A stretch of 64,000 nucleotides of DNA from Alphaproteobacteria bacterium (GCA_020632925.1 JACKER010000007.1:244910-308909), one strand, 5' to 3'. Shown: positions 6,282 through 51,650, numbered from the stretch's first letter. Numbers and translations: made by a program. The notes: generated from the letters alone by a model not told the origin.

Positions 6282-6935
6282 TCAGAGCGGCTCGATGCAG
6301 CGCGGGATGATCTCGAAGAAGTTGTTCTCGACGGAGTTGCTCACGCGGGCCGCGAGCGTGTTCGTGCCGGGGACGAGCAGCGAGGTCACGTCGATGGGGG
6401 GGACCACCGTGGTCACCAGGCAGTTCGCGTTCTCGTTGACGCAGCCCTCCTGCTGCCAGGCGCCGCCCCAGTGCCCGACGGCGGTGCCGTTGAGCCACAC
6501 CCAGACGCCGTCGTCGCTCTGCAGCTCGAGCGAGAGGTTCAGGGGGATGTCGGTCAGCGTGAAGGTCGCCACGTACGCGCGGTCGCTGCCGGGTGGGGTG
6601 GCGGTGTCCGGCAGGGTGACGGCGGTGTAGGAGCCCGTGTCGGCGGCCGGGTTCCAGAACACGCGACCCTGCCCATCGGTGGGATCGGAGCGCTGGGTGA
6701 ACGTCGGGCTGCCGCGGAAGGCCAAGACCGGCAGCGTCACGTCGTCGCAGGTCCAGGGGACCGTCCCGGTGTGCACCACCGGTGTGGCGCTGTGCTCGGG
6801 CGGGGGAGTGGTGGGGGTCGTCGGCGTCGTCTCGGCGGTGTCGCCGATGGCCCCCGTCTCGGTCGAGGGCACGACCACCGGATCGGGCTTGCTGGCCAGG
6901 TGGTAGTCGGAGCACGCTGCGAGGAACAACAGCAT
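6282..6935 (-). CDS. lipoprotein with a PA14-like C-terminal domain
   Basis: The lipobox 'MLLFLAACS' is present. The C-terminus ('DDGVWVWLNGTAVGHW') resembles a PA14 domain. I chose the internal ATG at 6935, not the ORF start at 7037. Confidence 0.5.
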   Translation of the reverse strand: MLLFLAACSDYHLASKPDPVVVPSTETGAIGDTAETTPTTPTTPPPEHSATPVVHTGTVPWTCDDVTLPVLAFRGSPTFTQRSDPTDGQGRVFWNPAADTGSYTAVTLPDTATPPGSDRAYVATFTLTDIPLNLSLELQSDDGVWVWLNGTAVGHWGGAWQQEGCVNENANCLVTTVVPPIDVTSLLVPGTNTLAARVSNSVENNFFEIIPRCIEPL

Positions 6936-7018
6936 CCACGTCCTGCGCACGATCGCCCTCCGCGCGACACGGTAACTCCTGTTCGAGTTACGGTCATCCC
7001 CAAACTTCGAGGTGTCTC

Positions 7019-7894
7019 TTGGCGCGTCGCTCCTCACCGTACCTGGCCCTCGCGGCGCTCGTCCTCGTCGGCTGTACGGGCTCCGGCCTGCAGCCCACGA
7101 CCAAGGACCACACGGTCCCGACGGACGAGCCGGACGCGGATGCGGACGCGGACACGGACACGGACTCGGACGCGGACACCGACGCCGACACGGACGCGGA
7201 CACCGACTCGGACACGGACACGGACGCGGACGCGGACACCGACGCGGACACCGACGCCGACACGGATACCGCGGACACCGGGGGGCCGGGCAACCCCTGG
7301 TCCCACACGATCACGGTGGACGGGAACCTGTCGGACTGGCTCGCCGGAGAGACGTTCACCACCACGTCGTCCGGCACCGGATACGTGACCTGGGACGCCA
7401 CCTACCTCTACGTGGCCTACCAGCACCCGGACGTCGCGGCCGGGGGGCCCCAGCACTGGGTGGTGATCTACCTCGGGGACGGCGCTGCCGGGTCGAGGAC
7501 GGGCATCCAGCTCAACACGCAGCAGCCCGCGCTGCCGGCACCGTTCCGCTTCGTGGTGCGGTGGAAGGCCGACAACAGCTACAACGCGCTGGACGTCTGG
7601 AACGGCGCCAGCTGGTCGACCCAGAACAACTGGCTCGGGACGCAGGGCAGCGCGGTCGCGGAGAGCAACGCGAACCAGGCGGTGGAGTTCCGCATCCCGT
7701 TGGCCGCGTTGGGCGGCGCGAGCCGCGTCTCGCTGTACACGTCCTGGGTGTTCGAGGGCGCCGGCTTCGAGACGACCTACTCCCCGCTGCCCTCCGGCAC
7801 CTTCACCGACGGCTACGACCCCGACCCGACGACCTACTACAGCTTCGACCTCACCGGCCCCGGCGCACCGAACAGGACCGGTCCGAGCTTCTAG
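7019..7894 (+). CDS. lipoprotein with an acidic Asp-Ala/Asp-Thr repeat linker and a C-terminal CBM9/DOMON-like domain
   Basis: A TTG start gives 'M-ARRSSPYLALAALVLVGCTGS', which is a lipobox. About 50 aa of DADADTDTDSDADTD follows. The C-terminus has 'ITVDGNLSDW', which is carbohydrate-binding-module-like. Confidence 0.5.
   Translation: MARRSSPYLALAALVLVGCTGSGLQPTTKDHTVPTDEPDADADADTDTDSDADTDADTDADTDSDTDTDADADTDADTDADTDTADTGGPGNPWSHTITVDGNLSDWLAGETFTTTSSGTGYVTWDATYLYVAYQHPDVAAGGPQHWVVIYLGDGAAGSRTGIQLNTQQPALPAPFRFVVRWKADNSYNALDVWNGASWSTQNNWLGTQGSAVAESNANQAVEFRIPLAALGGASRVSLYTSWVFEGAGFETTYSPLPSGTFTDGYDPDPTTYYSFDLTGPGAPNRTGPSF
7135..7280 (+). repeat. in-frame hexanucleotide repeat ((gac gcg/acc)n) encoding the DA/DT acidic linker
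   Basis: This is a visible run of gacgcg/gacacc/gactcg units. Confidence 0.7.
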
Positions 7895-8880: not shown

Positions 8881-10961
8881 CAACCCAGGGCTTCCACCAG
8901 GTCGGCGAGCACGTGCAGCCCCTCGTCCAGGCCGTAGTCGTGAGCGCGCTGGTACGCCTTGCGCTCCTCGTCCGACATCGCCGAGAAGTCCACGTCCTCC
9001 TCGCCGCTCTCGGCGTCGAGCAGAGCCTTGCGGGCCTCGTAGTCGGCCTTGCGCTGCTCGAGGACCAGGGAGACCGCCGTGCGCGCCTTGTCCTCCTCGC
9101 GGCGGGCCAGCTGCTTGGCGAGGCGCTCGTAGTCGGGGTCGGCCGCCACCCGCGCCGCGGACTTCTCCTGGAGCTTCGGCACCGCGGACGCCAGGTCGGA
9201 GGTCTTCGCGTACGGAGCGGGCGGGATGCGGTCCCAGGCGAGCGCGTTGGGCAGGTCGGACTCGTGGATGAAGTCCACCCCGTCCCACACGGACGGGAGC
9301 TCCACGTCGCTCGTCACGCCGAGGTTCTGCGTCGAGCCGCCCGACACCCGGTAGAACTTCTGGATCGTGATCTTGAGCGCGCCGCCCTCGTCGTCGTCGG
9401 GCGCGTGGCGGCCCTTGAGCGCGGGGGTCAGCGGCACCACCTGCTGCACCGTGCCCTTCCCGTGCGTGGTGTGGTCGCCGACGACGAGCGCGCGCCCGTA
9501 GTCCTGGAGCGCCGCCGCCACGATCTCGGAGGCCGACGCGGAGGTCGAGTCCACCATGACCGTCAGCGGCCCGTCCCACACCACCCGCGGGTCCTCGTCG
9601 TGCAGCGCCTCGATCGCGCCCTTGCGGTCACGCACCTGGACCACGGGCCCACCGGGGAGGAAGAGCCCCGCGACCTCGATCGCCTCCATCAGCGAGCCGC
9701 CGCCGTTGCCGCGCAGGTCGAGGACGACGCCCTCGGCGCCCTGCGCCTTGACCGCCTCGAGCTGGTTGCTGAGGTCGTTCGAGGCGCTGCGCCCGCGGCG
9801 TGCACCCTGGTAGTCGACGTAGAAGTTCGACAGTCGGAGGATTCCCAGCTTGTGGCCGTCGACCTCCTCCACGTGCCCCTCGGCCGCGCTGCGCTCGAGC
9901 GTCACGCGGTCCCGCTGGATGGCGACGACCTCGCGCTCCCCGTCCGCGTGCTCGATGGTCAGGTTGACCTGGGTGCCCTTGGGGCCGCGGATCATCTTCA
10001 CGACGCGGTCCAGCCGCATCTCGACGACCTCGACCGGCGCCTCCGACTTCTGCGCGACCTCGAGGATGCGGTCCTTGGCGCGCACGCGACCGCTCATGTC
10101 GGCCGGACCACCGGGGATCACCCGGTCGATCACGACGTACCCGTCGTCGGTGGTGAGCTGCGCGCCGATGCCCTCGACGCTGTTGGTGATGTCCACGTCG
10201 AAGTCGTCCTTCGACGTCGGCTTGAACCAGACCGAGTGCGGGTCGGCGGACTGGGTCATCGCGTCGAGGTACGTCTCGAGCACGTCGACCGTCTCCATGT
10301 CCGAGACGTTCTTCGCGTAGCGATCGTACCGCTTGATCAGGCGGTCGCGGACCTGATCCTCGCTGTCGCGACCCGTCAGCATGCCGCTGATGAAGTCGTC
10401 CTCGACCCGCTTGCGCCACAGCTCGCGGGCCTCGGCGGCGGTCTCGGGCCAGCCGAGCCCGGCCTCCTTGCGGTCGTAGACGATGGTCTCGTCGTTCGTC
10501 AGGTCGACGGGGCCGGCGGCGAAGGCCTTCGCGTCCGCCGCGCGCTCCAGCATGCGCTGACGGTATCGGGAGTAGATGACGATGGCGGGCTCGAGGCGGG
10601 AGAGGGGCCGCGCCATCACCAGGTCGTCCAGCTGGTTGCGGTACTGCTCGAACTCGCGGATGTCGGACGCGAGGAACACGATCCGCGCGCCGTCGAGCTC
10701 GTCGATGTACCGGTCGAGCCACTTCGACGAGAGCTCGTCGTCGATCTGGACGTGCTGGTAGTGGACCTCCTCGAGGTACCCGGCGACCAGGCCCGCGACC
10801 TCCTGCTGGTACGGCTGGACGTCGAGGGAGGGGAGGCCGTCGGCGCCGGACGCGTCGAGCTTCGGGGTCGCCTTGGCCACCGGCCCCGGGTCGGGCATGG
10901 CGGCCACCGCGGTGACGGCGAACAGTGACAGGACCACGGGCAGCACGAGACGACGGGTCAC
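8880..10961 (-). CDS. prc: tail-specific (C-terminal processing) protease, S41 family
   Basis: It has a signal peptide, a PDZ region ('GGPADMSGRVRAKDRILEV') and an S41 catalytic region ('VVLDLRGNGGGSLMEA'). Confidence 0.85.
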   Translation of the reverse strand: MTRRLVLPVVLSLFAVTAVAAMPDPGPVAKATPKLDASGADGLPSLDVQPYQQEVAGLVAGYLEEVHYQHVQIDDELSSKWLDRYIDELDGARIVFLASDIREFEQYRNQLDDLVMARPLSRLEPAIVIYSRYRQRMLERAADAKAFAAGPVDLTNDETIVYDRKEAGLGWPETAAEARELWRKRVEDDFISGMLTGRDSEDQVRDRLIKRYDRYAKNVSDMETVDVLETYLDAMTQSADPHSVWFKPTSKDDFDVDITNSVEGIGAQLTTDDGYVVIDRVIPGGPADMSGRVRAKDRILEVAQKSEAPVEVVEMRLDRVVKMIRGPKGTQVNLTIEHADGEREVVAIQRDRVTLERSAAEGHVEEVDGHKLGILRLSNFYVDYQGARRGRSASNDLSNQLEAVKAQGAEGVVLDLRGNGGGSLMEAIEVAGLFLPGGPVVQVRDRKGAIEALHDEDPRVVWDGPLTVMVDSTSASASEIVAAALQDYGRALVVGDHTTHGKGTVQQVVPLTPALKGRHAPDDDEGGALKITIQKFYRVSGGSTQNLGVTSDVELPSVWDGVDFIHESDLPNALAWDRIPPAPYAKTSDLASAVPKLQEKSAARVAADPDYERLAKQLARREEDKARTAVSLVLEQRKADYEARKALLDAESGEEDVDFSAMSDEERKAYQRAHDYGLDEGLHVLADLVEALG

Positions 10962-39684: not shown

Positions 39685-40803
39685 TCAGAGCACCCAACGG
39701 CCGTGCGCGAGGACGCGGCTGACCGAGAGGTCCTCGCCCAGCACGACCAGGTCGGCGTCCGCTCCAGCCGCGATCCGCCCCTTGCCCTCGAAGCGATAGA
39801 GCGCTGCCGGGTTCGTCGTCACCGGCGCGAGCGCGCGTTCGGGCGGGACCCCCGCGGCCAGCAGCCCGCGCACGACGCCCAGCAGGCCCTCGGCGTCGCC
39901 GACCTCCATGTGGAGCAGCTTCCCGTCGCGGTCGAACGTCGGCAGGCAGCCCCCGGCATCCGACGACAGCGTGATGCGCGCCGGATCCCGGCCCTCGGTC
40001 AGGTAGCGGAGCACCGCGGCCGTCGGGTCGACGGTGCCGTCGTCGTAGGGGGGAGGGAAGGCGCTCACGTCGATCCAGCCGCCGTCGTCGGACCAGGCCA
40101 GCGCCTCCTCCCACAGCCGGGGGTTGCGGTTCACGTGTGTCGGGTGGAACACCCGCCGGGGGAGCTCCGTCTCCGCTGCCGCCCGGCGCAGCAGCTCGAG
40201 CCCGCGCCGGCCGTCGCCCAGGTGCAGGTGGACCAGACCCGCCTTGCGGCTCATCATGCCCGCGACGTGGGCGTCCGCGGCGACGCGCAGCAGCTCGTCG
40301 TAGGTCGGCTGGCTCGAGCGGTGGTCGGAGATGGCGACCTCGCCGACCGCCACGATCGTGGGCACGTGGACGATGTCGCCGCGCACCGAGCCGGTCAGCG
40401 TCGGCGGGGGGACCTCGTACCCTCCGGTGTGGATCCACGCAGACAGGCCCATCGCGCGGACCGCGTGGGCGCAGGCCAACAGCTCGCCGATCGTGCGCGT
40501 CGTGCAGTCCGTGCCGAGCAGGCCGACCGCGGTGGTGACGCCGGACCGCGCCAGCGACGCCGGCACCAGCGGCGGGACGCGGGTCTCGGGGCCGCCCTCC
40601 CCACCACCGCCGGTCAGGTGGACGTGGAGGTCGACCAGACCCGGGATCAGCGTGCAGCCGTCGAGGTCGACGACGTCCACACCCCAGCCGGGCGGGGGCT
40701 CGGCGGGCACCCCCAGGGCGAGCACGCGCCCGCCCCCGACGAGGACCGTGGTCGTTCCCAGGTCCTCGGGGGCCCAAACGCGGGCGCCGCGCAGCAGCAG
40801 CAT
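39685..40803 (-). CDS. iadA: isoaspartyl dipeptidase (beta-aspartyl dipeptidase)
   Basis: It carries 'HVHLTGGGGEGGPETR', 'AISDHRS', 'PTHVNRN' and 'TLSSD'. These match my memory of E. coli IadA. The ATG overlaps the cphA stop as ATGA. Confidence 0.8.
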   Translation of the reverse strand: MLLLRGARVWAPEDLGTTTVLVGGGRVLALGVPAEPPPGWGVDVVDLDGCTLIPGLVDLHVHLTGGGGEGGPETRVPPLVPASLARSGVTTAVGLLGTDCTTRTIGELLACAHAVRAMGLSAWIHTGGYEVPPPTLTGSVRGDIVHVPTIVAVGEVAISDHRSSQPTYDELLRVAADAHVAGMMSRKAGLVHLHLGDGRRGLELLRRAAAETELPRRVFHPTHVNRNPRLWEEALAWSDDGGWIDVSAFPPPYDDGTVDPTAAVLRYLTEGRDPARITLSSDAGGCLPTFDRDGKLLHMEVGDAEGLLGVVRGLLAAGVPPERALAPVTTNPAALYRFEGKGRIAAGADADLVVLGEDLSVSRVLAHGRWVL

Positions 40804-43607
40804 CAGTCGTTCGGCTCGGGCGCGCGGGCCACCCGGACCCCACGCTCGTCCATCACCAGCGCGCCCTGCGGCAGCTGGACGACGACGGGCTCCGGAGCCG
40901 GCGGCGCCGGGCGCCAGGCGGGCTGCTCCACGACCTGGACCGCGCCGTCGTGCTCGCGGCCGTAGTAGATGATCTGCTTCCAGCAGCGCGTGAGCTGATC
41001 ACCGAAGACCAGCAGCAGATCGCCCTCTCGGCAGCTGCGCAGCCCCATGTCGAGCGCCTCGATCTCGTCGGGGACGATGTGGACCGCCGCGGGCTGGACC
41101 CCGGCCTCGAGCAGCGCGTCGCGCATCAGCTTCGCCACCGCGCCGCGGTCGCGGCCGCGCGCGTCGTCGTCCTCCTTGCAGATGAACAGGTCGAACGAGC
41201 AGGACGCCCGCGCGGCGATGCGCTGGATGTCCTCGTCGCGGCGGTCGCCGGGGGCGGTGAGCAGGACCACGCGCTTCGTGCGCATCCCGGTCCCGTCCGA
41301 CAGGCGGTCGACCAGGTTGCACATCGCCTCGATCGCGTGCGGGTTGTGGCCGTAGTCGAGGATGACCTTGAAGCCGAGCTCGTCGTAGACGTTCATCCGG
41401 CCCGGCGCCTGGAAGAAGCTGTTGTCGAAGGTCCGGAGCCCGTGGCGGATGTCGTCCAGCTTCACGCCCATCGCCCAGGCCATCGCGGCCGCGAACATCG
41501 CGTTCTGGACGTTGTGGATGGCCTTGCCCTCCATCGTCGCCGGGATGAGGTGGGTCCACAGCAGCGGCATGTGCGACATCCGGTCGTAGATGGTGATCAT
41601 CTGACCGTTGACCCCACCCTCGAGCCCCACGGCCAGCCCGCCCTGCCGGATGTGCTCGCGCACCAGCTCGTGCTGGGGGTTCATCGTCACGTACGCGACG
41701 CGCCGGGCCTCGCTGTGGTCCGCCATCGCGAGGCAGAGCGGGTCGTCGGCGTTGAGCACCACGCAGTCGGACGCGACCTCGATCGGGATGCGCTTGACCT
41801 CGGCGAGCTGCTCGAGCGTGTGGATGCCGCCCAACCCGAGGTGGTCGCCGGCGACGTTGAGGCAGCAGGCCACGTCGGGGTGCCTGTACCCCATGCCGGC
41901 GCGGAGCAGGCCGCCGCGCGCGGTCTCGAGCACGGCGACCGTGACCTTCGGGTCGCGGAGCACCATCTGGGCGCTGATCGGTCCGGTCATGTCGCCCGGG
42001 ACCGTGCGGTTGCCGTCGACGTAGACGCCGTCGGTCGTGGTCAGGCCGACGACCGCGCCGGCCATCTTGTGGATGTGCGCGAGCATGCGGCTCGTCGTCG
42101 TCTTGCCGTTGGTCCCCGTCACGGCGGCGATGGGGATGCGCGTCGGCGTGCCCGGGGGGAACAGCATCTCCATGACGGCGCCCGCCACGTCGCGGGGGTG
42201 ACCCTCCGAGGGCGCGACGTGCATCCGGAAGCCGGGTGCGGCGTTGACCTCGCAGATCCCGCCGCCGACATCGGTCCAGGAGCGCGTGATGTCCGGCGTC
42301 AGGAAGTCCACGCCGCACACGTCCAGCCCCACGGCGGCCGTCGCCCGCTCCGCCATCTCGCGGTTGTCGGGGTGGATCATGTCCGTCACGTCGATCGCGG
42401 TGCCGCCCGTGGACAGGTTCGCCGTCGACCGGAGGTAGAAGACCTCTCCGGCGGTCAGCACGCTCTCCGCCGTCTTGCCGGCGGCCGCGAGCAGCCGCTG
42501 GGCCTGTCCGTCGAGCTCGAGGCGCGTCAGCACCTTCTCGTGCCCGATGCCGCGCCGGGGATCGAGGTTCACGAGGTCCACGAGCTGCGCGACCGTGTGC
42601 TGTCCGTCGCCGACCACGTGCCCCGGCACGCGCTTGCTCGCGGCCACGAGCCGCCCGTCCACCACCAGCAGCCGGTGGTCGAAGCCCTCCACGCACTGCT
42701 CGACCAGCACGACCCGCGAGTGCTCGCGCGCGACCGCGAAGGCGTCGGACACGGCCTGCTCGCCCTCGATCCCGATGGTGATGCCCCGACCGTGGTTGGC
42801 GTCGAGCGGCTTGACCACGACCTTGCCGCCGATGCGCTGCCAGGCGCGGACGGCCTCCTCGCCGGTACGGACCTGGATCTGCTTGGGCACGGGCAGCCCC
42901 ATGTCCGCGAGGATCCGGTTCGTGAGGTTCTTGTCCGACGCGATCTCGACGCCGATGTTCTTGGTCTCGCTCGTCACCGTTGCCCAGATGCGCTTCTGGC
43001 GGCACCCGTGGCCGAACTGGACGAGGGACGCGTCACCGATGCGCAGCCAGGGGATGTCCCGAGCCTCGGCCGCCCGCACCAGCGAGGCCGTGGAGGGCCC
43101 GAACGCGCGGCTCTGCGTCTCGAGGATGAGATCCTCGAGCTCCATCGCGAAGTCGAAGCCGGGCTCCGGCGGCGCGTCGGGGTGCAGCGCCTCGGGGATG
43201 ATGTGGTGGAGGAGTCGGAGCGCCAGCTCGCCCGCCGCCATGCCCACCCAGGGGTCCTCGTACTCGTAGACGACGTGGTACTGCCCGACCTCGCCCGACC
43301 CCCGGGTCTTGCCGAAGGTCACGGGGAAGCCCGCGAGGTGCTGGAGCTCGATCGCGACGTGCTCGAGCACGTGGCCCATCCAGGTGCCGCCGTCCTCCCG
43401 CAGCCGCCGGACGAAGCCGCCGGGCTCGCCGTAGGAGCAGCCGTGGTCGCCCAGGCCGGGCAGCAGCTGCAGGAGCTGATCCACGAAGCCCGGGATCGCC
43501 GCGGACGGGTGGTCCTCGAGCGGGCCGAGGTCGAGCAGGAAGCGGATCACGCGGAAGTGCGCGTACAGGTTCGGGCCGAGGTAGGTACGGCGCTCGAGGA
43601 TGCGCAT
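40803..43607 (-). CDS. cphA: cyanophycin synthetase
   Basis: It has an ATP-grasp domain followed by a Mur-ligase domain ('VTGTNGKTTT'). Confidence 0.9.
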   Translation of the reverse strand: MRILERRTYLGPNLYAHFRVIRFLLDLGPLEDHPSAAIPGFVDQLLQLLPGLGDHGCSYGEPGGFVRRLREDGGTWMGHVLEHVAIELQHLAGFPVTFGKTRGSGEVGQYHVVYEYEDPWVGMAAGELALRLLHHIIPEALHPDAPPEPGFDFAMELEDLILETQSRAFGPSTASLVRAAEARDIPWLRIGDASLVQFGHGCRQKRIWATVTSETKNIGVEIASDKNLTNRILADMGLPVPKQIQVRTGEEAVRAWQRIGGKVVVKPLDANHGRGITIGIEGEQAVSDAFAVAREHSRVVLVEQCVEGFDHRLLVVDGRLVAASKRVPGHVVGDGQHTVAQLVDLVNLDPRRGIGHEKVLTRLELDGQAQRLLAAAGKTAESVLTAGEVFYLRSTANLSTGGTAIDVTDMIHPDNREMAERATAAVGLDVCGVDFLTPDITRSWTDVGGGICEVNAAPGFRMHVAPSEGHPRDVAGAVMEMLFPPGTPTRIPIAAVTGTNGKTTTSRMLAHIHKMAGAVVGLTTTDGVYVDGNRTVPGDMTGPISAQMVLRDPKVTVAVLETARGGLLRAGMGYRHPDVACCLNVAGDHLGLGGIHTLEQLAEVKRIPIEVASDCVVLNADDPLCLAMADHSEARRVAYVTMNPQHELVREHIRQGGLAVGLEGGVNGQMITIYDRMSHMPLLWTHLIPATMEGKAIHNVQNAMFAAAMAWAMGVKLDDIRHGLRTFDNSFFQAPGRMNVYDELGFKVILDYGHNPHAIEAMCNLVDRLSDGTGMRTKRVVLLTAPGDRRDEDIQRIAARASCSFDLFICKEDDDARGRDRGAVAKLMRDALLEAGVQPAAVHIVPDEIEALDMGLRSCREGDLLLVFGDQLTRCWKQIIYYGREHDGAVQVVEQPAWRPAPPAPEPVVVQLPQGALVMDERGVRVARAPEPND

Positions 43608-43666: not shown

Positions 43667-44221
43667 CTACGCGAACAGGCCGCGGATCATGGCGAAGAGC
43701 CTGGCGAACAGGCTCGGGGGTGCGGGCGGGGCGAGCGGAGCCTCGGGGCTCGGGGGCGCGCCGGGCGGAAGGGCGGGGGCCGTGGGCACGCCGAGGTCGG
43801 GCTCGGGCGCCAGCGCCGCCACGCGCGGGAACTCGCGCTCCGGGGTCGGGTGGAGCGGGGTCGCGAACAGGTCGAGCAGGTCGGGCACGCGCTCGGCGGC
43901 AGGATGGGGCACCGGAGACCGTGCCTCGGGCCGTGGCGGACGGCTCGCGCGCACCTGCGGGGTCGGCGGGGTCTCGGGCCCGTCGTCGGTCTCGGCCGGC
44001 CAGGTCTTCGCGAGCGTCGTGGGCGGCGTCGGCTCGGGGTCCATCCGCTCGGTCCCGAGTCCCGACGCGAGGTTCTGGAGCAGGCCGTCCACGGCCTCGT
44101 CGGTGAGCTCGTCGAGGACGGACGCCGGCAGCTCGTCCGAGGCCTCCTCTTCCGCGAAGGGGTCGTAGGTCCCGGTGCGGGGTTTCGCCGCGGCCGGTGG
44201 ATGGTCGTCGTCCGCACCCAT
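43667..44221 (-). CDS. hypothetical acidic, Pro-rich, probably disordered protein
   Basis: It is the only non-Arg-rich frame among overlapping ORFs and ends in '...LFA'. Confidence 0.3.
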   Translation of the reverse strand: MGADDDHPPAAAKPRTGTYDPFAEEEASDELPASVLDELTDEAVDGLLQNLASGLGTERMDPEPTPPTTLAKTWPAETDDGPETPPTPQVRASRPPRPEARSPVPHPAAERVPDLLDLFATPLHPTPEREFPRVAALAPEPDLGVPTAPALPPGAPPSPEAPLAPPAPPSLFARLFAMIRGLFA

Positions 44222-44278
44222 GGTTCGCTTCCATAGCGTGCTCGCACCGCGGGATCACCTCGTGACCCCGGACGGCCG

Positions 44279-44950
44279 TTACGCTGGGAACACGCTCCGG
44301 AAGAACCCGGTCAGCACCGACCACGCGGAGGGCGCCGAGGCTGTGGACTTCGTCTCGGGCGCGGGGGCGCGCTCGGGCTGGGGCCGCGGGGTGGGCTCGC
44401 TCGGCGCGGGCATGGCCAGGGCGGCGGCGAAGACGGTGGGCTCCGAAGGGACGGAGATCTCGCTCGGTTCCAGGTCGGACTCGACGCGGGGCGGGAAGAG
44501 GGGGCGGCTCGGCGTGGTCTTCAGGTTCGAGAGATCCAAGAGATCATCATCGGACGCCTCCGAGGGCAGCGGCATGTTCGTCGGCGGGAGCGAGTTCGCC
44601 CGGTTGCGGGACGGGCGCTGCTGCGGGGACGTCGTGCGGGCCGGGACGGGGGAGGCCGCGAACGACGCGGTCCGCATCGGAGGCCGCATGCTCACCGGCG
44701 CGTCCAGCGAGGGCTCGTCCGGGTGGAGCATGATCGTGGTGCCCTGGAGGTCCAGCATCATCACGTCGACGTCGACGTCGGAGAGCCCGGCCAGCAGCGC
44801 CTCGGGGACGACCGTCTCCTCCCCGTCGTCGTCGAGCGGGACGTAGGTGCCCAGGGGCTCGCCCGAACGGGCCACCATGCCAGCGATGCGGTAGGTCCCG
44901 CCGTCGGCCGTGGGGTCGGGGGTCTCGTCGTGGTCGAAGGCGATGCCCAT
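44279..44950 (-). CDS. hypothetical acidic, Pro/Ser-rich protein
   Basis: An AGGAGGTG RBS lies 6 nt upstream of the ATG at 44950. Confidence 0.35.
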   Translation of the reverse strand: MGIAFDHDETPDPTADGGTYRIAGMVARSGEPLGTYVPLDDDGEETVVPEALLAGLSDVDVDVMMLDLQGTTIMLHPDEPSLDAPVSMRPPMRTASFAASPVPARTTSPQQRPSRNRANSLPPTNMPLPSEASDDDLLDLSNLKTTPSRPLFPPRVESDLEPSEISVPSEPTVFAAALAMPAPSEPTPRPQPERAPAPETKSTASAPSAWSVLTGFFRSVFPA

Positions 44951-45126
44951 GTGAACACCTCCTGGAGGGGTGGCTTGCACTATTTGTATATAGAGCCATT
45001 CCGGAATCCACGGTTCCACTGAGGGTTACAGGGCCGATGATCAGCCTCTGAACAGAGAGATGGCCCGGTTTCGCCCCTGGTTGCACCGACGGACGGCGTC
45101 GTTGGTGGGCGGATCGGTGGGGACGG

Positions 45127-45669
45127 GTGACACTCGCCAGGTCCCGCGGTGTCCCAGGGAGTGAACGGACGCCACACGAGAGGTTCATGGGCGTCGACAT
45201 CCGTGCCTGGTACCAGCAGTATGGTCCGATGGTCCACCGTCGGTGCCGGGCGCTTCTTCGTGACGAGGAGGAGGCGATGGAGGCGATGCAGGACGTGTTC
45301 GTGGAGGTGGTGCGCCGCGGCGATCGGCTCGAGGTCGACGCTCCGAGCTCCTTCCTCTACCGAACGGCCACCAACGTCTGCCTGAACCGGATCCGGTCGC
45401 GCAAGCGCAAGCCGTCGGAGGCCGACACCGACGTCGTCGAGCGCATCGCGATGGCGCCGGAGGCCGAGGACAAGACGCTGATGGGCCTGCTGCTCGCGCG
45501 GATCTTCGCCAACGAGCAGGTGTCGACGCGCGAGATGGCGGTCATGCACCTGGTCGACGGGCTCACCCTCGAGGAGGTCGCGCAGGAGACCGGGCTGTCC
45601 GTCTCCGGCGTCCGAAAGCGGCTACGGGTCCTCAAGGCGCACGTCGCCGAGCTGCAGGAGGTCGCGTGA
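45127..45669 (+). CDS. ECF (sigma-70 family) RNA polymerase sigma factor
   Basis: It has region 2 ('FVEVVRR') and a region 4 HTH ('EVAQETGLSVSGVRKRL'). The start may be the ATG at 45187. Confidence 0.8.
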   Translation: MTLARSRGVPGSERTPHERFMGVDIRAWYQQYGPMVHRRCRALLRDEEEAMEAMQDVFVEVVRRGDRLEVDAPSSFLYRTATNVCLNRIRSRKRKPSEADTDVVERIAMAPEAEDKTLMGLLLARIFANEQVSTREMAVMHLVDGLTLEEVAQETGLSVSGVRKRLRVLKAHVAELQEVA

Positions 45670-46454
45670 CCGCCCCCGACCAGCGCCGCATCCCCGATCT
45701 GCTCGTGGAGCGCGTGTTCCTCGGCGAGGCCACCGAGGAGGAGCGGGCGCGGGTCATGGCGGACCCGGACGCCGCCGACCGCCTGCGCGCCATGCCGATG
45801 GAGAACGCGAGGTTCTTCATGGCGCACCCGCCCGAGGAGGTCGTGCCGCGGATCGAGGGCCGGGTACGCATCGACGAGGCGCGGCGCAGGCTCGCCCAGC
45901 GCAACGGGCTGCTCGGCGGGCTCGTGATGGTCCCGCTCGCGGCCGCCGCGCTCTCGCTGTTCGTCGTAACGCAGGGTCCGAGCACGGGGACGGGTACCGG
46001 CGGCGGGCCAGGTGTCGAGCACACCACGGCGAAGGGCCTGTCGTCGCGCCTTCGGGTGTACCACCAGACCAGCAAGGGCGTGCGGCGGATCGCACCCGCG
46101 CAGGTGATGCGCAAGGGCGATCGGCTGCAGCTCGGCATCATCGCGGGCGACGCGACGAACGGCGCGGTGTTCAGCATCGACGGCCGCGGTCAGGTGACGC
46201 AGCACTTCCCGGTGGACGGGGGTGGGACGACGCTGACGAACGGCGAGCTTCGGATCCCCGAGGCGTACGAGCTGGACGACGCCCCGGATTACGAGCGCTT
46301 CCTGCTGGTCACCGGGGCCGGGCCGGTCGACGTGGCCGCCGTGCGGGCGGCGGTGGAGACCCTCGCCGGATCGGCGGATGCGAGGGAGGGCGAGCTCGCG
46401 CTCCCCGAGGGGCTCGACCAGGGGTCCTTCCTCGTACGGAAGGAGGAGCGCTGA
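45666..46454 (+). CDS. anti-sigma factor: cytoplasmic N-domain, one TM helix and an extracytoplasmic DUF4384-like domain
   Basis: The GTG overlaps the sigma-factor stop as GTGA. The TM helix is 'LLGGLVMVPLAAAALSLFVV'. Confidence 0.6.
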   Translation: MTAPDQRRIPDLLVERVFLGEATEEERARVMADPDAADRLRAMPMENARFFMAHPPEEVVPRIEGRVRIDEARRRLAQRNGLLGGLVMVPLAAAALSLFVVTQGPSTGTGTGGGPGVEHTTAKGLSSRLRVYHQTSKGVRRIAPAQVMRKGDRLQLGIIAGDATNGAVFSIDGRGQVTQHFPVDGGGTTLTNGELRIPEAYELDDAPDYERFLLVTGAGPVDVAAVRAAVETLAGSADAREGELALPEGLDQGSFLVRKEER

Positions 46455-48568
46455 TGCTCCCCGTCCTCCTGACGCTCGCGACCGCGCGGGCCGAGGAGGT
46501 CCACCGCTACGCGCTGATCGTCGGGACCAACGACGGCGGCACGGAGCGGGTGACCCTCCGCTACGCCCAGACCGACGCGCAGACCATGGCCGAGATCCTC
46601 GGCTCGCTCGGCGGGGTCTCGTCCGGCCGCTCCACCGTGCTGCTCGACCCCGGCGTGGAGGATCTGCGCACCGCGTTCTCCAGGCTCCACGGCGAGATCG
46701 CGGCGGACACCGAACGGACCGAGGTGATCTTCTACTACTCGGGGCACAGCGACGAGGACGGCCTGCTGCTCGGCGACGAGCTGTTCGGGTACCGCGAGCT
46801 GCGGTCCTCCCTCGACGGGCTCGGGGCCAAGGTCCGACTCGCGATCCTGGACTCGTGCGCCTCGGGCTCGCTGATCCTGTCCAAGGGCGGCACGAAGGTC
46901 GCGTCCTTCCTGCCCGAGACCGGCGCCTCGGTCGACGGGGTGGCGTACATCACCTCCAGCAGCGCCGACGAGGTGAGCCAGGAGGGCGATCGGGTCGGCG
47001 GCTCCTACTTCACGCACTACCTCGCGTCCGGGCTGCGGGGTGCCGCGGACCTCACGGGGGACGGCCGGGTCACGCTGAACGAGGCGTACGTGTTCGCGCG
47101 GGACGAGACGCTCGAGCGGACCGAGCGCACGCAGCACGGCCCGCAGCACGCGAGCTACGACTTCCAGCTCTCCGGCTCGGGCGAGCTCGTGCTCACGGAC
47201 CTCACCCGCCGCGACGCGAGCCTGGTGATCGCCGAGGGTGTCGGCGGGCACGTGGTCGTCCGCGACGAAGAGGGCCGGCTGGTCGCGGAGCTGGACAAGC
47301 CCGCGGACCGTCAGACGCACCTGGCGGTCCCGGCCGGCGACTACGTGGTGACGGTGCTCCCCGAGGAGGGTGGCGTCCTCGAGTCCACGCTGCGGGTCGC
47401 CACCGGCGAGACCTCGATGGTCGACACCGACGGCCTCGCGGCGGCGGACGCCGAGGACGCGGTCGCGCGGGGTGATCTCGCGCCGCGGGCGGCGGCCATC
47501 CTGGACGCGCTGAAGGTGGAGCGCGAGGGCGTGAGCCTGATGCTGGTGCCCGGCGTGCCCGAGGTGTCCTCGGGCGTCGATCGCGTGGGGATCGGGCTGA
47601 TCACCGGGCGGTCGGAGGTCGTGCAGGGGTTCGCGTTCGGCACCTTCTACTACGACGTGAGCAGCGACCTCGACGGCTACGAGACCTCGTTCGGCATCGC
47701 GCGCGCCGAGACCGGCAGCGGCCTGCAGACCGCGATGATCGGCAACGTCACCGCGGGCCCGTTCGACGGCGGGCAGCTCACGCTGGGTGCCAACAGCGCG
47801 CACGGTGGCATCCGCGGCATCCAGGTGGCGATGGGCGCGAACCAGGCGGCGGGTGGCTTCCGCGGCTGGCAGACCTCGCTCGGTCTGAACCGATCGGGGA
47901 CCTACTCCGAGGGCACGCAGCTCGCGATGGGGCTGAACGTGGCGCGCGATCTGCGCGGGCTGCAGGTGGCGACGATCAACGTCGCGCGGGACACCGTCGG
48001 CGGCCAGGTGGGCCTGATCAACGTCGGCCGCGACGTGCACGGCGTCCAGCTCGGTCTGATCAACGTCGCGAACGACAGCGACCTGCCCATCGGGCTGCTC
48101 TCCTTCGTGAAGGAGGGGCGGCACGACCTGCTGCTGTACGCGAGCGAGAGCGACTGGGTGAACGGCGAGCTGCGCCTCGGCGGACCCCACACGTACACGC
48201 TGCTCGGCGGCGGCTTCCAGCCCGACCGGCACGTGTACGCGTCCTACGGCCTCGGCGGGCACGCGACCTTCGGCAAGGCCTGGCTGGATCTCGACGCTGT
48301 GCAGCAGGTCTACCTGCCGATGGGGTCCTCGCTGGTGGACCCGGCCGGCGGGACGCGCTCGGTGTTCGACGAGCCGCCGACCGGCGTGATCCGCCTCCGG
48401 ACGACGGTGGGCTTCCAGATCCTGCCCGAGCTCGCACCCTTCGCCGGCGCCTCGGTGGCCGCGCGGATCCCGGTCGACGCCCGCCAGGTAGACATGGTGC
48501 CCGCGCTGGACGCGCCGGACAACGCCTGGGTGGTGTGGCCCGGCGTCTTCGCGGGACTCCAGTTCTGA
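46454..48568 (+). CDS. secreted caspase-like (peptidase C14) protein with a C-terminal array of about 20 aa Gly/Gln repeats
   Basis: It has a signal peptide. The His/Cys dyad is in caspase context ('FYYSGHSDEDG', 'ILDSCASGS'). The repeats are 'GLQVATINVARDTVGGQVGLINVGRDVHGVQLGLINVAND'. Confidence 0.75.
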   Translation: MLPVLLTLATARAEEVHRYALIVGTNDGGTERVTLRYAQTDAQTMAEILGSLGGVSSGRSTVLLDPGVEDLRTAFSRLHGEIAADTERTEVIFYYSGHSDEDGLLLGDELFGYRELRSSLDGLGAKVRLAILDSCASGSLILSKGGTKVASFLPETGASVDGVAYITSSSADEVSQEGDRVGGSYFTHYLASGLRGAADLTGDGRVTLNEAYVFARDETLERTERTQHGPQHASYDFQLSGSGELVLTDLTRRDASLVIAEGVGGHVVVRDEEGRLVAELDKPADRQTHLAVPAGDYVVTVLPEEGGVLESTLRVATGETSMVDTDGLAAADAEDAVARGDLAPRAAAILDALKVEREGVSLMLVPGVPEVSSGVDRVGIGLITGRSEVVQGFAFGTFYYDVSSDLDGYETSFGIARAETGSGLQTAMIGNVTAGPFDGGQLTLGANSAHGGIRGIQVAMGANQAAGGFRGWQTSLGLNRSGTYSEGTQLAMGLNVARDLRGLQVATINVARDTVGGQVGLINVGRDVHGVQLGLINVANDSDLPIGLLSFVKEGRHDLLLYASESDWVNGELRLGGPHTYTLLGGGFQPDRHVYASYGLGGHATFGKAWLDLDAVQQVYLPMGSSLVDPAGGTRSVFDEPPTGVIRLRTTVGFQILPELAPFAGASVAARIPVDARQVDMVPALDAPDNAWVVWPGVFAGLQF

Positions 48569-48572
48569 TCGC

Positions 48573-50849
48573 TCAGCGCAGCACGCCCGTGGTCACGAAG
48601 CTGGTCACGCAGTCGCTGCCCTGCTCCTCGTCGCGCTCGAAGTCGTACACCCCGCCCTCCCCTCGGACGTAGGCGAGCGAGGTGATGCTGGCCTCGACCG
48701 GCTCGGTGCGCGGGTCGCCGCAGTTCGGGCCGCCGGAGTACGTGAAGGTCCCGCTCCGCAGCTGGACCAGATGGAGCGTGCCCACGTCCTTCACCGGGAC
48801 GTTGAACGAGGTGGACCCGTCGCCCTCCATCACGAACGGGCCGGAGAACGACTCGTCCAAGACGCACGCGGGATCGGGCGAGATGTTGCCGAAGTGGCCC
48901 ACCTGCACCCCGTTGCCGGAGACCGCGAGGAGCGTGCCGTCCTCGTCGATCTGCACGGTCACGTCGACGGTCGTCGTGCGCTCACCGTGCGGACAGGTCT
49001 CCGTGGTCACGCTGTGGATGGACCCGGAGTACCCGTGCAGCGGAAGACAATGGCGGGCGAGCTGCTCGTCTCGAACGTCGAGGTCGCCCGTGTACGGACC
49101 TGCGAACGCCCCCCAACACAGGATGTCGAGGTCGCTCACGGACGCCTCGTCGAGCCGCAGCTCCTCCGAGGGGGCCGCGTCGGCGGGGATGGTCACCGTC
49201 ACGATGCCGAGCCTGCCGTCGCCGTCGAGGTCGAACGCAGCCTCCCCGTCGCGGTTCGCGAAGCCGTCGCCGTTCAGGTCGCCGCGCGGCCAGGTGCGCT
49301 CGGCCGTGTCGGTGTCGATCTCGGCGAGCAGGGCCCGGATGTCGTCGTCGTCGAAGCCCTGTCTCTGTGGGAAGTAGTCGAGCATCGTGCGCCGCACGGG
49401 GAGGCCGCGTGACTCGAGGGCGAGCGTGGCGGACAGCGCGTCCACCCAGCGACCGTCCCACGCGTCCAGCAACCGGCCTCGGATCTCGGCTGCGTCGAGC
49501 GTCGGGTCCATCGCGCGCAGCCACGCGGCCAGGCCGGCCAGCTGGGGTGCCGCCCCGCTCGTTCCGCGCGACGTCATCAAGAACCCGTCGTTCTCCTTGT
49601 GGCAGTCCTTGTCCGCGCGTACGCACACACCGAGGAGCTTCTCGCCGATCATCCGAACCGGCGAGCCCCGGCTCGAGAACACCGACTCGACGCCGCTCTC
49701 GCTCGAGGCGCCCACGATCAGGGTCTGGCCCTGGACGTGGTCGATGCGCTCTCCGACCCGTGCCCGTGCGTCGGCGATCGCCTCCGTGATGTCCTCCCGG
49801 TCGCTCACGGGCACGAGCGACGCGAGGTCGTCGCCCGTCGCCTGCAGCGTGAAGACCGAGTTCATGGCCGTCACCACTCCGTCACCCCCGTCGTTGCCGC
49901 CCGAGGTGGTGTGGAGGAAGCCGGCGCCACGCCGCACGAGCAGCTCCCGCCACGCGAGGGCGAGCTCGGCCCGATCCAGCTCGCTCTCCTGCGCTCCGAA
50001 TCCGAACGACGTGTTGAGCACGAAGAACTCGGACAGGGGTAGCGTCCTGCCCAGCTCGAGCACCTGGTCGAGAGGGTCGCCGATGCCGCGGAGGTTGACC
50101 GAGACCAGGTCGAGCGAGGTCTCCGGGGCGGCGTGGGTCCCGGTGGGCGTGATGGCGTCTGCTTTCGCTCCCACCAGGCTCGCGACCCAGTACCCGTGGT
50201 TGCCGGCGAGTTCCCTCTTGATCGCTACGTCCTTCATCCTGGGGCTGGGGCCGACGAAGCGCTGCGTGGCGATCTGGGTGTGGGCCACGTTCTCGGTGTA
50301 GAAGTCGACGACGTAGACCGGAACGCGGTTCGTCGCGAGGGGTGCGGCGTTCCAGGCGGCGAAGAACCGCTGGAGGCCGAGGGCGGGCTGCGCCGTACCC
50401 GCGGGCCCGCTGGGGGCGCCGCGGTCGTTCGCGCCAGGGGAGCTGGGAGCGGTCGCCAGCCAGGCAGGTCGTGCGCGCCGGATGCCGCGCATGGCGCTCA
50501 AGCCGTCCGCGACCCGCTGCGCGTCCGCCAGATCGGCCATCGGGGGCACGGTGATCGTGAGCCAGGCGAAGCCCTCGAGGCTGGACGCGACGCTGCCATC
50601 GACGGACGCGAGCGCTTCCTCGAAGGACGTCTCGTCGACCTCGTCGTCCAGCAACACGACCAGGCGATCGAGGATCAGGCCGTCGGCGCCCACCTCGTCG
50701 TCGGTGATCGGCGCGGGCCCCTCGTCGACCACGAAGTCGAGGCCCAGCGCCGGATCGTCGCTGGTGGAGGGGTCGTTGTGGGAGCAGGACAGGAGCGAGG
50801 CGAGCACCAACGACGTGATCAAGGATCCCCCGATGTCGTGTCGGAACAT
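48573..50849 (-). CDS. subtilisin-like S8 serine protease lipoprotein
   Basis: The lipobox 'LVLASLLSCS' is present. It carries His ('GNHGYWVASLVG') and Ser ('GTSGAAPQLAGLAAW') motifs. The C-terminus has DxDGDG motifs. Confidence 0.7.
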   Translation of the reverse strand: MFRHDIGGSLITSLVLASLLSCSHNDPSTSDDPALGLDFVVDEGPAPITDDEVGADGLILDRLVVLLDDEVDETSFEEALASVDGSVASSLEGFAWLTITVPPMADLADAQRVADGLSAMRGIRRARPAWLATAPSSPGANDRGAPSGPAGTAQPALGLQRFFAAWNAAPLATNRVPVYVVDFYTENVAHTQIATQRFVGPSPRMKDVAIKRELAGNHGYWVASLVGAKADAITPTGTHAAPETSLDLVSVNLRGIGDPLDQVLELGRTLPLSEFFVLNTSFGFGAQESELDRAELALAWRELLVRRGAGFLHTTSGGNDGGDGVVTAMNSVFTLQATGDDLASLVPVSDREDITEAIADARARVGERIDHVQGQTLIVGASSESGVESVFSSRGSPVRMIGEKLLGVCVRADKDCHKENDGFLMTSRGTSGAAPQLAGLAAWLRAMDPTLDAAEIRGRLLDAWDGRWVDALSATLALESRGLPVRRTMLDYFPQRQGFDDDDIRALLAEIDTDTAERTWPRGDLNGDGFANRDGEAAFDLDGDGRLGIVTVTIPADAAPSEELRLDEASVSDLDILCWGAFAGPYTGDLDVRDEQLARHCLPLHGYSGSIHSVTTETCPHGERTTTVDVTVQIDEDGTLLAVSGNGVQVGHFGNISPDPACVLDESFSGPFVMEGDGSTSFNVPVKDVGTLHLVQLRSGTFTYSGGPNCGDPRTEPVEASITSLAYVRGEGGVYDFERDEEQGSDCVTSFVTTGVLR

Positions 50850-50945
50850 GAGCCGCAGCCTCCGTCAAGCCCCATTGCGAGCGGATCTACGGCAGCGGTG
50901 GTGAGGGGACGGGCTCGCCCACCGGCGGCGGCGGTATGGTCGCCC

Positions 50946-51650
50946 ATGCGTCGCGCCGACCGACTCTTCCGCCTCGTCCAGCTCCTGCGGACCTCGCCCG
51001 TCCGCACGGGGGCCTCGCTCGCCGAGGAGCTCGGCGTGTCGCTCCGCACCGTGTACCGGGACATCGGGGACCTCGAGGCCCAGGGCGTGCCCATCGAGGG
51101 TGAGGCGGGCGTCGGCTACCGGCTCGCGCGCGGGCACGACCTGCCGCCGATGACGTTCACGGCGGCGGAGATCGAGGCGCTCGTGCTCGGTGCGCGCATG
51201 GTGGGCTCCTGGGCGGACGGCGAGCTGGCGTCGGCCTCGCAGTCCGCGGTCGACAAGATCCGTGAGGTCCTGCCGACGTTGCTGCGGCCCCTGGCCGACG
51301 AGACCACGCTCTTCGTGCCGCACCTGCGCGCCTCCGACGACGCGCTGGGTCCGCTCCGGGTGGCGATCCGCGACCGGCGCAAGGTCCGCCTGTCGTACGA
51401 GAACGGCCAGGGGGAGGCGACGGACCGCGTGGTGTGGCCGCTGGGGCTGTTCTTCTGGGGGAAGCGCTGGTCGCTGGTCGGCTGGTGCGAGCTGCGCGGG
51501 GACAGCCGGAACTTCCGGGTCGATCGCATCGCCGCGGTCGACGTCCTCGACACGACGTACCCCCTGGACCAGGAGCGCTCGCTGCAGGCCGCCCTCGCGC
51601 GAGAGCAGGAGCGGATCGGCGAGGGGTTCCCGCGGATCCGCGGGGTGTAG
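50946..51650 (+). CDS. YafY-family transcriptional regulator (HTH plus WYL domain)
   Basis: N-terminal 'LFRLVQLLRTSPVRTGASLAEELGVSLRTVYRDIGDLEAQGVPIEGEAGVGYRL'. The C-terminus has 'WPLGLFFWGKRWSLVGWCELRGDSRNFRVDRI', which is a WYL domain. Confidence 0.8.
   Translation: MRRADRLFRLVQLLRTSPVRTGASLAEELGVSLRTVYRDIGDLEAQGVPIEGEAGVGYRLARGHDLPPMTFTAAEIEALVLGARMVGSWADGELASASQSAVDKIREVLPTLLRPLADETTLFVPHLRASDDALGPLRVAIRDRRKVRLSYENGQGEATDRVVWPLGLFFWGKRWSLVGWCELRGDSRNFRVDRIAAVDVLDTTYPLDQERSLQAALAREQERIGEGFPRIRGV

Follow-up and report, generated by a model that had tools for sequence, protein, structure and literature searches.

We analysed a 64,000-nt stretch of DNA deposited under the name Alphaproteobacteria bacterium (GCA_020632925.1, JACKER010000007.1:244910-308909), hereafter the window, with positions counted from its first letter. 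A preliminary description of this DNA had pointed to three coupled genes at 45127-48568, and ORF calling confirmed both the open reading frames (ORFs) and their overlaps. The three ORFs lie on the + strand at 45127/45187-45669, 45666-46454 and 46454-48568; the first two share a GTGA junction (overlap 45666-45669) and the last two a TGATG junction with a one-base overlap at 46454, and the three genes are translationally coupled. Scans of 44900-48800 for sigma-70 promoters and for intrinsic terminators found none. As detailed below, the genes encode a sigma factor of the extracytoplasmic function (ECF) type, a single-pass membrane protein of the ActD family that is a probable anti-sigma factor, and a caspase-family protease that is probably anchored in the outer membrane.

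The first gene (45187..45669, + strand, 160 aa) encodes an ECF sigma factor, as had been proposed. Its product scored above cut-off against Sigma70_r2 (57.7 bits, cut-off 24; E 1e-15), Sigma70_ECF (22.8 bits, cut-off 21.1) and the ECF superfamily model TIGR02937 (61.1 bits, cut-off 42.9), and marginally under cut-off against Sigma70_r4_2 (25.1 bits, cut-off 25.7). It has the make-up of an ECF (group 4) factor, with regions 2 and 4, without regions 1.1 and 3, and a length in the range of ~160-200 aa. The preliminary description had let this gene begin at the GTG at 45127, a start that had to be moved. Homologues are almost all 159-160 aa long, 60-99% identical, and match the product that starts at ATG 45187 over its whole length, and the putative promoter motif described below begins at the GTG at 45127. 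For both reasons the comparison with homologues sets the true start at ATG 45187, which is preceded by a purine-rich GAGAGG at 45178-45183.

The second gene (45666..46454, + strand) encodes a 262-aa protein whose AlphaFold2 (AF2) model has a predicted local distance difference test (pLDDT) score of 87. The model and the alignment together delimit a cytoplasmic four-helix domain (aa 1-83; 45666..45914), a candidate sigma-binding domain with helices at aa 11-18, 24-32, 34-53 and 56-83 and with an invariant residue, E15, inside a conserved PDxLxER motif. A transmembrane helix (aa 89-102) and a periplasmic linker (aa 103-120) follow (45930..46025); the Arg-rich stretch RRRLAQR on the N-terminal side of the helix indicates an N-in topology. 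The linker is disordered and variable in length, with AF2 pLDDT <50 and a gappy, variable alignment. At its boundary with the ectodomain lies K123-G124 (46032..46037), invariant in 55 sequences, extended to R-x-K-G in most relatives, and a candidate cleavage site. The ectodomain itself (aa 125-262; 46038..46451) is predicted to be an immunoglobulin-like (Ig-like) beta-sandwich and a divergent relative of DUF4384.

The likeness of this ectodomain to DUF4384, already suggested in the preliminary description, survived in a weaker form. The window protein itself fell below threshold against PF14326 (12.6 bits, cut-off 27; E 0.15), covering profile positions 3-39 of 81, but as remote homology the likeness holds at the level of sequence profiles, because 32 of the 55 aligned family members match DUF4384 at E<=1 (best E 2.5e-5). 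One homologue additionally carries a precomputed PF14326 match. The second protein has no match at threshold in Pfam or NCBIfam, its family being without a model of its own, and anti-sigma-type profiles gave sub-threshold scores (PRK13920, E 0.096; zf-HC2 in 3/55 family members, E>=0.11). Searching PDB sequences with the family profile returned chance-level matches only, and Foldseek of the model against PDB returned none at E<=0.001 and generic Ig-like folds only; among the matches listed, neither the profile search nor either of two fold searches gave an anti-sigma structure, and the beta domain dominated these lists. The architecture is that of an anti-sigma factor, with a four-helix domain of ~80 aa, one transmembrane helix and a gene coupled directly downstream of an ECF sigma gene. 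The earlier label of a single-pass anti-sigma factor is thus borne out for the single helix, the position and the architecture, but not by any anti-sigma family or fold match, and by architecture and position the protein is a probable anti-sigma factor. A profile search placed 2,309 clusters (50% identity) in its family at E<=1e-30, all of ~250-300 aa, and some of these homologues are named 'ActD' or 'ActD-like' by NCBI.

The third gene (46454..48568, + strand) encodes a caspase-family protein of 704 aa. Residues 18-199 match the Peptidase_C14 hidden Markov model (HMM) above cut-off (E 1.3e-13), within a metacaspase-like catalytic domain at aa 16-230 (46499..47143) whose predicted fold is of the caspase-hemoglobinase kind. 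The catalytic residues, His98 in SGHSD (codon 46745-46747) and Cys135 in DSCASG (codon 46856-46858), are invariant among 30 aligned full-length homologues, and the dyad motifs are present in 84/84 loci scanned. The claim of an intact His/Cys dyad, on which the preliminary description had staked its reading, therefore withstood careful alignment, and the sequences strongly support a catalytically intact metacaspase-like cysteine protease. Its nearest solved relatives by sequence are metacaspases. Because the invariant residues D41 and D133 align to the acidic S1 residues of these enzymes, the Asp of C-x-N-D and of D-S-C in metacaspase-1 and metacaspase-4, we predict an acidic, metacaspase-like S1 pocket with specificity for Arg/Lys. 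In the TbMCA2 structure the corresponding Asp residues reportedly line the S1 pocket and confer Arg/Lys specificity. A disordered loop after the catalytic Cys carries the invariant K144-G145 (46883-46888), part of an invariant K-G(G) motif that usually reads R-x-K-G-G.

Beyond the catalytic domain, the AF2 model of the third protein (pLDDT 81) shows a beta-sandwich at aa 237-331 (47162..47446; delimited by AF2 secondary structure and pLDDT), a disordered linker at aa 335-357 (47456-47524), a beta-solenoid at aa 358-552 (47525..48109) and a C-terminal barrel. The solenoid is built of LA_2272-type G-x-Q...N repeats. Where about 12 tandem repeats of 20 aa had been described, we count eight clear G-x-Q-x4-5-N units, starting at aa 423, 439, 455, 471, 487, 502, 516 and 530, preceded by ~4 degenerate rungs from ~aa 358, with a period of 14-16 aa. 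LA_2272_repeat (NF047436) matches in two stretches (28.5 bits, cut-off 25); against VC2662_fam the score was 17.8 with a cut-off of 140, outside that family. Tandem Repeats Finder reported no tandem repeat at the DNA level beneath the protein repeats. The barrel (aa 556-704; 48119..48565) is predicted to be OmpA-like, with eight antiparallel strands that close on themselves and a C-terminus ...FAGLQF that ends in a hydrophobic or aromatic residue.

This C-terminal architecture changes the picture of a secreted protein given in the preliminary description. The signal peptide is there, though short (MLPVLLTLATARA), and homologues carry ordinary ones, but the model suggests that the protein is probably anchored in the outer membrane and not freely secreted. 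In OmpA-type eight-stranded barrels both termini are periplasmic, and on that basis the protease domain would hang into the periplasm on a stalk. The beta-sandwich was also considered as a second DUF4384-like domain and rejected, as its profile-profile comparison with the second protein gave a probability of 2%. A variant layout occurs in a 6.9-Mb genome (L085, 8211-10685; loci are given by such numbers where they must be told apart), in which the caspase gene encodes no more than 456 aa and a distinct gene of 328 aa, without a Pfam match, comes after it; here the protease may be split from the solenoid and barrel, or there may be a frameshift.

The caspase protein has >2,000 full-length homologues, mostly in Myxococcota, including cultured Myxococcus, Corallococcus, Archangium and Stigmatella. 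We fetched 80 genome loci around these homologues and classed them by tblastn. Sigma gene, ActD-like gene and caspase gene were contiguous and in the same order in 49/80 loci; the ActD-like and caspase genes lay inside an act-type operon in 9/80 (one of them partial, with actC only) and stood as a pair without these contexts in 10/80 (five on truncated contigs); the caspase was found without either partner in 12/80. An ActD-like gene was thus directly upstream of the caspase in 68/80 loci, often with overlapping stop and start codons. Starting from distant homologues of the second protein or of the sigma factor, we recovered the trio in four further loci, from a Spirochaetota metagenome-assembled genome (MAG), two other MAGs and the 6.9-Mb genome. 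Systems with a gene of the second type are found mainly in Myxococcota, and also in Spirochaetota and other phyla. The genes that flank the trio in the window (S8 protease, the 246-aa and 184-aa unknowns, cyanophycin synthetase and glutathione S-transferase (GST)) have no homologues near the trio in 85 loci and are therefore not part of the module; because they recur near none of the loci, the trio itself is the conserved unit, as the preliminary description had required of its reading.

The preliminary description had also called for a promoter recognised by the sigma factor itself. The canonical ECF -35/-10 form (GAAC...CGT) yielded nothing conserved upstream of the sigma genes, but de novo k-mer enrichment, applied to the 150 nt upstream of each of 48 sigma genes, revealed a bipartite element. 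The k-mers GGTGACA and CGGTGT occurred in 30-37/48 upstream regions against 0.5-2 expected, and they combine into GTGAC[AC]-N15-GGTGT, which is present with invariant spacing in 35/48 regions, mostly 44-101 nt before the ATG. The window holds a single exact copy in its 64 kb, at 45127..45152 on the + strand (GTGACA at 45127-45132, a 15-nt spacer, GGTGT at 45148-45152), ending 35 nt ahead of the sigma start codon. Across 1.21 Mb of fetched loci the gene (+) strand carried 62 copies and the opposite strand 4, compared with 0-3 per shuffle. Since this element of fixed spacing sits just upstream of an ECF sigma gene, it is likely to be an autoregulated ECF promoter, with its dependence on this sigma factor deduced from that position.

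The same motif extends beyond the trio. In its relaxed GT[GA]AC form it lies upstream of the caspase operon in 69/78 loci with enough upstream DNA, with 72 copies on the + strand against 4 on the - strand. Every act-type locus has it in the gap that separates actC from actD (L058, for instance, at 7005-7030), it stands immediately 5' of solitary caspase genes (L073, L014 and L067), and in Myxococcaceae it heads an operon of ExbB, ExbD, TonB, TonB-dependent receptor, lipoprotein and caspase that lacks an ActD-like gene. These observations strongly support that the motif behaves like the promoter of a regulon nearly always holding caspase genes of this family. Because it also heads operons of caspase paralogues without an ActD-like partner, the caspases of this family are at minimum a characteristic output of the motif regulon. 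Two loci deviate in layout. In L063, an exact copy (10118-10143) falls just downstream of the caspase gene and a one-mismatch GTAAC variant upstream of it at 6592; in L082, the motif at 4086 precedes an extra 415-aa gene of unknown family, itself before the sigma gene.

We next describe the relation to ActD of Myxococcus, which gives the second gene its family name. In the literature the act locus is a four-gene operon, actABCD, that controls the level and timing of csgA and the C-signal. Comparison of the second protein with the protein at the actD position gave 35-39% identity over residues 9-259 (tblastn E 1e-22 to 1e-37), resting on act-type loci of Myxococcus-group genomes; matches were full-length in seven loci (L025, L029, L035, L036, L038, L058 and L059) and partial in L045 (residues 128-259). 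In these loci the gene order, verified with Pfam, is GGDEF response regulator, sigma-54 activator, GNAT/epimerase, ActD-like protein and full-length caspase homologue, and the stop and start codons of the last two genes overlap or abut. This order was seen in eight genome loci and in the Myxococcus faecalis chromosome, spanning Myxococcus, Corallococcus and Pyxidicoccus; Corallococcus has loci of the trio type as well. By sequence, the second gene belongs to the ActD family, and the last two genes of the trio are relatives of actD and its downstream neighbour.

Like the trio, the actD/caspase pair is preceded by GTGACA-N15-GGTGT, here between actC and actD; in the Myxococcus faecalis chromosome (L084) the motif lies at 7096 inside the 169-nt actC-actD gap (7023-7192). 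Unlike the trio, the pair has no adjacent sigma gene, and the operon around it is a developmental one that depends on sigma-54. The fetched Myxococcus loci, which are of the act and TonB types, contained no cognate sigma gene. From the motif we predict an internal promoter in the actC-actD gap, through which actD and the caspase gene would be expressed independently of the sigma-54 act promoter. Mutation of actC or actD reportedly alters when csgA is expressed (Gronewold & Kaiser 2001). In the searchable literature ActD has no assigned biochemical function, and we found there no account of it as anti-sigma-like and none of the downstream caspase.

The interpretation put forward in the preliminary description was a proteolytic cascade in which the caspase acts on the anti-sigma ectodomain. 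It is compatible with all of the findings above and plausible from the sequences and models, with the amendment that the caspase is also at least an output of the regulon. In its full form, to which we assign a probability of roughly 45%, an outer-membrane-tethered caspase would cut the ActD-like anti-sigma factor and release the ECF sigma factor, within an autoregulated envelope-signalling operon. The cytoplasmic domain of the ActD-like protein would hold the sigma factor at the inner membrane until an envelope cue led the tethered protease to engage the ectodomain. A site-1 cut would then be made in the region of the invariant (R-x-)K-G where the linker has its foot, either at this motif or close to it, intramembrane proteolysis would follow, and the freed sigma factor would transcribe its own operon again together with other motif-bearing operons. 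Such further targets would include the actD-caspase pair within the act operon and the TonB/ExbBD/TonB-dependent-receptor/caspase operon of Myxococcaceae.

Several observations favour an interaction of the two proteins and a cut in one of them. The pairing of ActD-like and caspase genes is tight and persists where the sigma gene has been lost, and both partners are extracytoplasmic, each with a flexible linker. DUF4384 has been reported in fusion with protease domains and with cyanobacterial orthocaspases, and by analogy such fusions may be taken as Rosetta-stone-type evidence for an interaction here. Cleavage of the ectodomain by the caspase is plausible because both proteins face the periplasm, because the predicted S1 pocket is acidic and metacaspase-like, and because both carry an invariant (R-x-)K-G. 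In the ActD-like protein this K-G lies exactly where the linker meets the fold; in the caspase it occupies a typical autoprocessing position. The Arg of R-x-K-G moreover co-varies between the partners (2x2 table 50/13/2/5; Fisher p = 0.01, with phylogeny ignored). Caspase-fold proteases that work on regulators of sigma factors also have precedents, in craspase and in DdvA, both taken up below.

Other observations weigh against this scheme. The cytoplasmic domain of the ActD-like protein matches no anti-sigma HMM in Pfam or NCBIfam and no solved anti-sigma structure among the matches listed. Contact between the caspase and the ActD-like protein, and the cleavage itself, are proposals drawn from gene arrangement and models; the K-G of the ActD-like protein may instead be structural; and the co-variation of the Arg between the two proteins is weak. 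The periplasmic rather than surface orientation of the protease follows the usual topology of eight-stranded barrels, and both the word promoter and the reading of the motif by this sigma factor are deduced from sequence. Finally, caspase paralogues without an ActD-like partner occur under the same motif (12/80 loci), about half of them ending a TonB-type operon. Because these paralogues lack such a partner, the caspase would have at least one role besides cutting ActD and could be a pure output.

The last point leads to the strongest alternative, in which the sigma factor is paired with the ActD-like protein as in any ordinary ECF system that senses another envelope cue, and the outer-membrane caspase is the main product of the regulon, an effector acting on envelope, surface or signalling proteins but not on the anti-sigma factor. 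We consider this possible, if somewhat doubtful. It accounts naturally for the motif ahead of caspase-paralogue operons that have no ActD-like gene, whether of the TonB type or with the motif directly upstream of a solitary caspase gene; target genes downstream of the anti-sigma gene are common in ECF operons, and among the loci fetched several genomes have two caspases of the family and one ActD-like gene. It leaves unexplained, however, the tight pairing of ActD-like and caspase genes (68/80, also in the absence of a sigma gene, in the act operon and in loci with ActD alone as partner), the recurrent fusion of DUF4384 to proteases, and the invariant K-G motif shared by the two proteins.

A second alternative keeps the contact and drops the cut. 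The DUF4384-like ectodomain would bind the caspase without being cleaved, as a tether, as a pro-domain in trans or as an inhibitor; engagement of a substrate, or a change in the distance between the membranes, would release the ectodomain, and the anti-sigma factor would then fall to DegS- or Prc-type proteases. The adjacency and co-conservation that speak for cleavage speak equally for such docking, and the rigid beta-solenoid stalk with flexible linkers on both partners would suit a contact across the periplasm. DUF4384 is also found as an accessory to proteases and to orthocaspases whose catalytic residues are mutated, a hint that its role is to bind and not to serve as substrate. Against this, every paralogue keeps the catalytic dyad unchanged, which means that catalysis is under selection, and an invariant basic K-G at the foot of the linker fits a substrate site of an Arg/Lys-specific enzyme. 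We regard docking without cleavage as unlikely.

A suicide or anti-phage defence module, the other possibility raised in the preliminary description, is highly improbable: craspase is a caspase-fold protease in bacterial defence, CHAT-containing systems and gasdermin-activating proteases also act in defence, and the caspase has a weak caspase_w_EACC1 match (53.5 bits, far below the cut-off of 140), but PADLOC gave no match that passes alone for any of the three proteins, the neighbours are of housekeeping type (cyanophycin synthetase, amidohydrolase, GST, S8 protease, WYL regulator) and form no defence island, the protease, with its signal peptide and outer-membrane barrel, is predicted to lie outside the cytoplasm and could not reach cytoplasmic targets, and the module is stable, vertically conserved across Myxococcota and embedded in a developmental operon in Myxococcus.

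Set beside known systems, the trio is nearest by homology to ActD and its downstream caspase, and nearest in logic to anti-sigma proteolysis, to DdvS/DdvA and to craspase. In classical regulated intramembrane proteolysis (RseA/DegS/RseP; RsiW/PrsW; FecR/FecA/FecI with Prc and RseP), a site-1 cut, a site-2 protease, release of the sigma factor and an autoregulated operon recur in the same succession that we propose. FecA offers a parallel for an outer-membrane partner, and in the Spirochaetota locus L081 the trio comes directly after ExbB-ExbD-TonB and a TonB-dependent receptor. Site-1 enzymes known so far belong to the serine or metallo proteases, whereas the candidate here is a caspase-fold cysteine protease on the outer membrane, and the steps here are proposed ones.

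DdvS/DdvA of Myxococcus xanthus likewise pairs an ECF sigma factor with a single-pass anti-sigma factor, the latter bearing a periplasmic caspase-fold (CHAT) module with a His-Cys dyad, the proposed trigger of regulated proteolysis. The protease fold of DdvA is in cis, forms a dimer and follows a zinc-binding anti-sigma domain, and the system controls CBASS and CRISPR defence genes; in the trio the protease is a separate protein with a predicted outer-membrane anchor, and the probable anti-sigma factor has an Ig-like ectodomain of DUF4384 type. Craspase (type III-E CRISPR; Csx29, a TPR-CHAT protein, with Csx30, Csx31 and RpoE) resembles our scheme in that a caspase-fold protease makes its cut in a flexible linker of a protein bound to an ECF sigma factor: the target of Csx29 is Csx30, a partner of RpoE, and in one group of Csx30 proteins the C-terminal domain belongs to DUF4384. 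Craspase differs in being cytoplasmic, activated by target RNA, of the CHAT/separase protease type and without a membrane anchor or outer-membrane component, whereas the protease here is C14 and metacaspase-like. With metacaspases and orthocaspases (Arabidopsis MC4 and MC9, yeast Yca1, TbMCA2, cyanobacterial enzymes) the third protein shares the His/Cys dyad, the Asp residues of C-x-N-D and D-S-C and the disordered loop after the Cys; it differs in its identity of ~22% and in having an export signal, a beta-sandwich, a LA_2272-repeat solenoid and an OmpA-like barrel.

The component families and the overall logic of sigma/anti-sigma proteolysis are already known. In the searchable literature, which leaves the supplements of the ECF classification outside it, the conserved arrangement in three parts, the anchoring of the protease in the outer membrane as predicted here, the motif of the regulon and the homology to ActD all appear undescribed, and we found no account there of an outer-membrane-anchored caspase-fold protease as conserved third partner of an ECF sigma/anti-sigma pair. 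The main text of the ECF classification paper does not mention caspase, peptidase or DUF4384.

If the protease does cut the anti-sigma factor, it would represent a new protease class for anti-sigma signalling and a new geometry, with the protease on the outer membrane and its substrate in the inner membrane. The system would then be a periplasmic counterpart of the cytoplasmic craspase-Csx30-RpoE pathway and would give a biochemical role to bacterial metacaspase-like enzymes, most of which are without a known substrate. Independently of the mechanism, ActD, a developmental timing gene of Myxococcus, gains a concrete molecular identity; the act locus is predicted to hold an unnoticed internal promoter and a fifth gene, a caspase; and the fixed-spacing motif marks out a regulon, so that its members can be mapped in the genome of any of the Myxococcota. 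A still wider reading is conceivable, which we offer as speculative and hold to be rather doubtful. The trio would belong to a large undescribed class of trans-envelope systems in which an outer-membrane-tethered, Arg/Lys-specific metacaspase is the site-1 protease, cutting an ActD-type anti-sigma factor at a conserved R-x-K-G and thereby freeing an ECF sigma factor; Myxococcus ActD would be an 'orphan' anti-sigma factor of this class; and the internal ECF promoter would couple actD and the caspase gene to that sigma factor, linking periplasmic caspase proteolysis to C-signal timing in fruiting-body development.

Some further observations concern the TonB-type operon and its possible tie to the trio. 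The operon occurs in L053 (1996-10052) and in L060, L065, L069, L071, L075 and L080, from Myxococcus, Pyxidicoccus and Citreicoccus, and comprises ExbB, ExbD, TonB, a TonB-dependent receptor of ~900 aa with an extra N-terminal TonB_C-like domain, a 306-307-aa lipoprotein and a caspase paralogue. The lipoprotein has no family match; we compared it with the second protein of the trio as a candidate relative and obtained no relationship. In the Spirochaetota MAG (L081, 840-9107; GCA_043803405.1), the trio is immediately preceded, on its own strand, by ExbB, ExbD, TonB and a TonB-dependent receptor with a Plug domain, an order that may reflect an ancestral connection of the trio with a TonB system; this locus lacks the exact promoter motif.

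Around the trio, the window contains genes that bear no visible relation to it. Divergent from the sigma gene lie two Pro/Ala/Glu-rich ORFs of 184 and 246 aa (43667-45019, - strand), without a family match and without homologues beside the trio in other loci. Beyond them, a cyanophycin synthetase (934 aa; Cyanophycin_syn N-terminal domain, ATP-grasp and Mur-ligase) and an amidohydrolase-family gene (372 aa) occupy 39685-43607 on the - strand, a couple that resembles a pair for cyanophycin metabolism and has no relation to the trio. On the other side, an S8 subtilase of 758 aa with a lipoprotein-like N-terminal signal (48573-50849, - strand) converges on the caspase gene, their stop codons being 4 nt apart; other loci do not have it beside the trio. 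A regulator with HTH_11 and WYL domains (50865-51650, + strand) is found two genes downstream of the trio. WYL regulators are frequently tied to defence or DNA-damage loci, and near this one we saw no further defence gene.

The source bin probably carries a wrong taxonomic label. A protein identical to the product of the second gene (P0121, 45666-46454) is deposited under the 'Alphaproteobacteria bacterium' MAG with locus tag H6735_01260, and its close relatives with a named source are mostly labelled Myxococcota or Myxococcales. No more plausible is the assignment of several related MAG contigs to Enterobacterales or Enterobacteriaceae.

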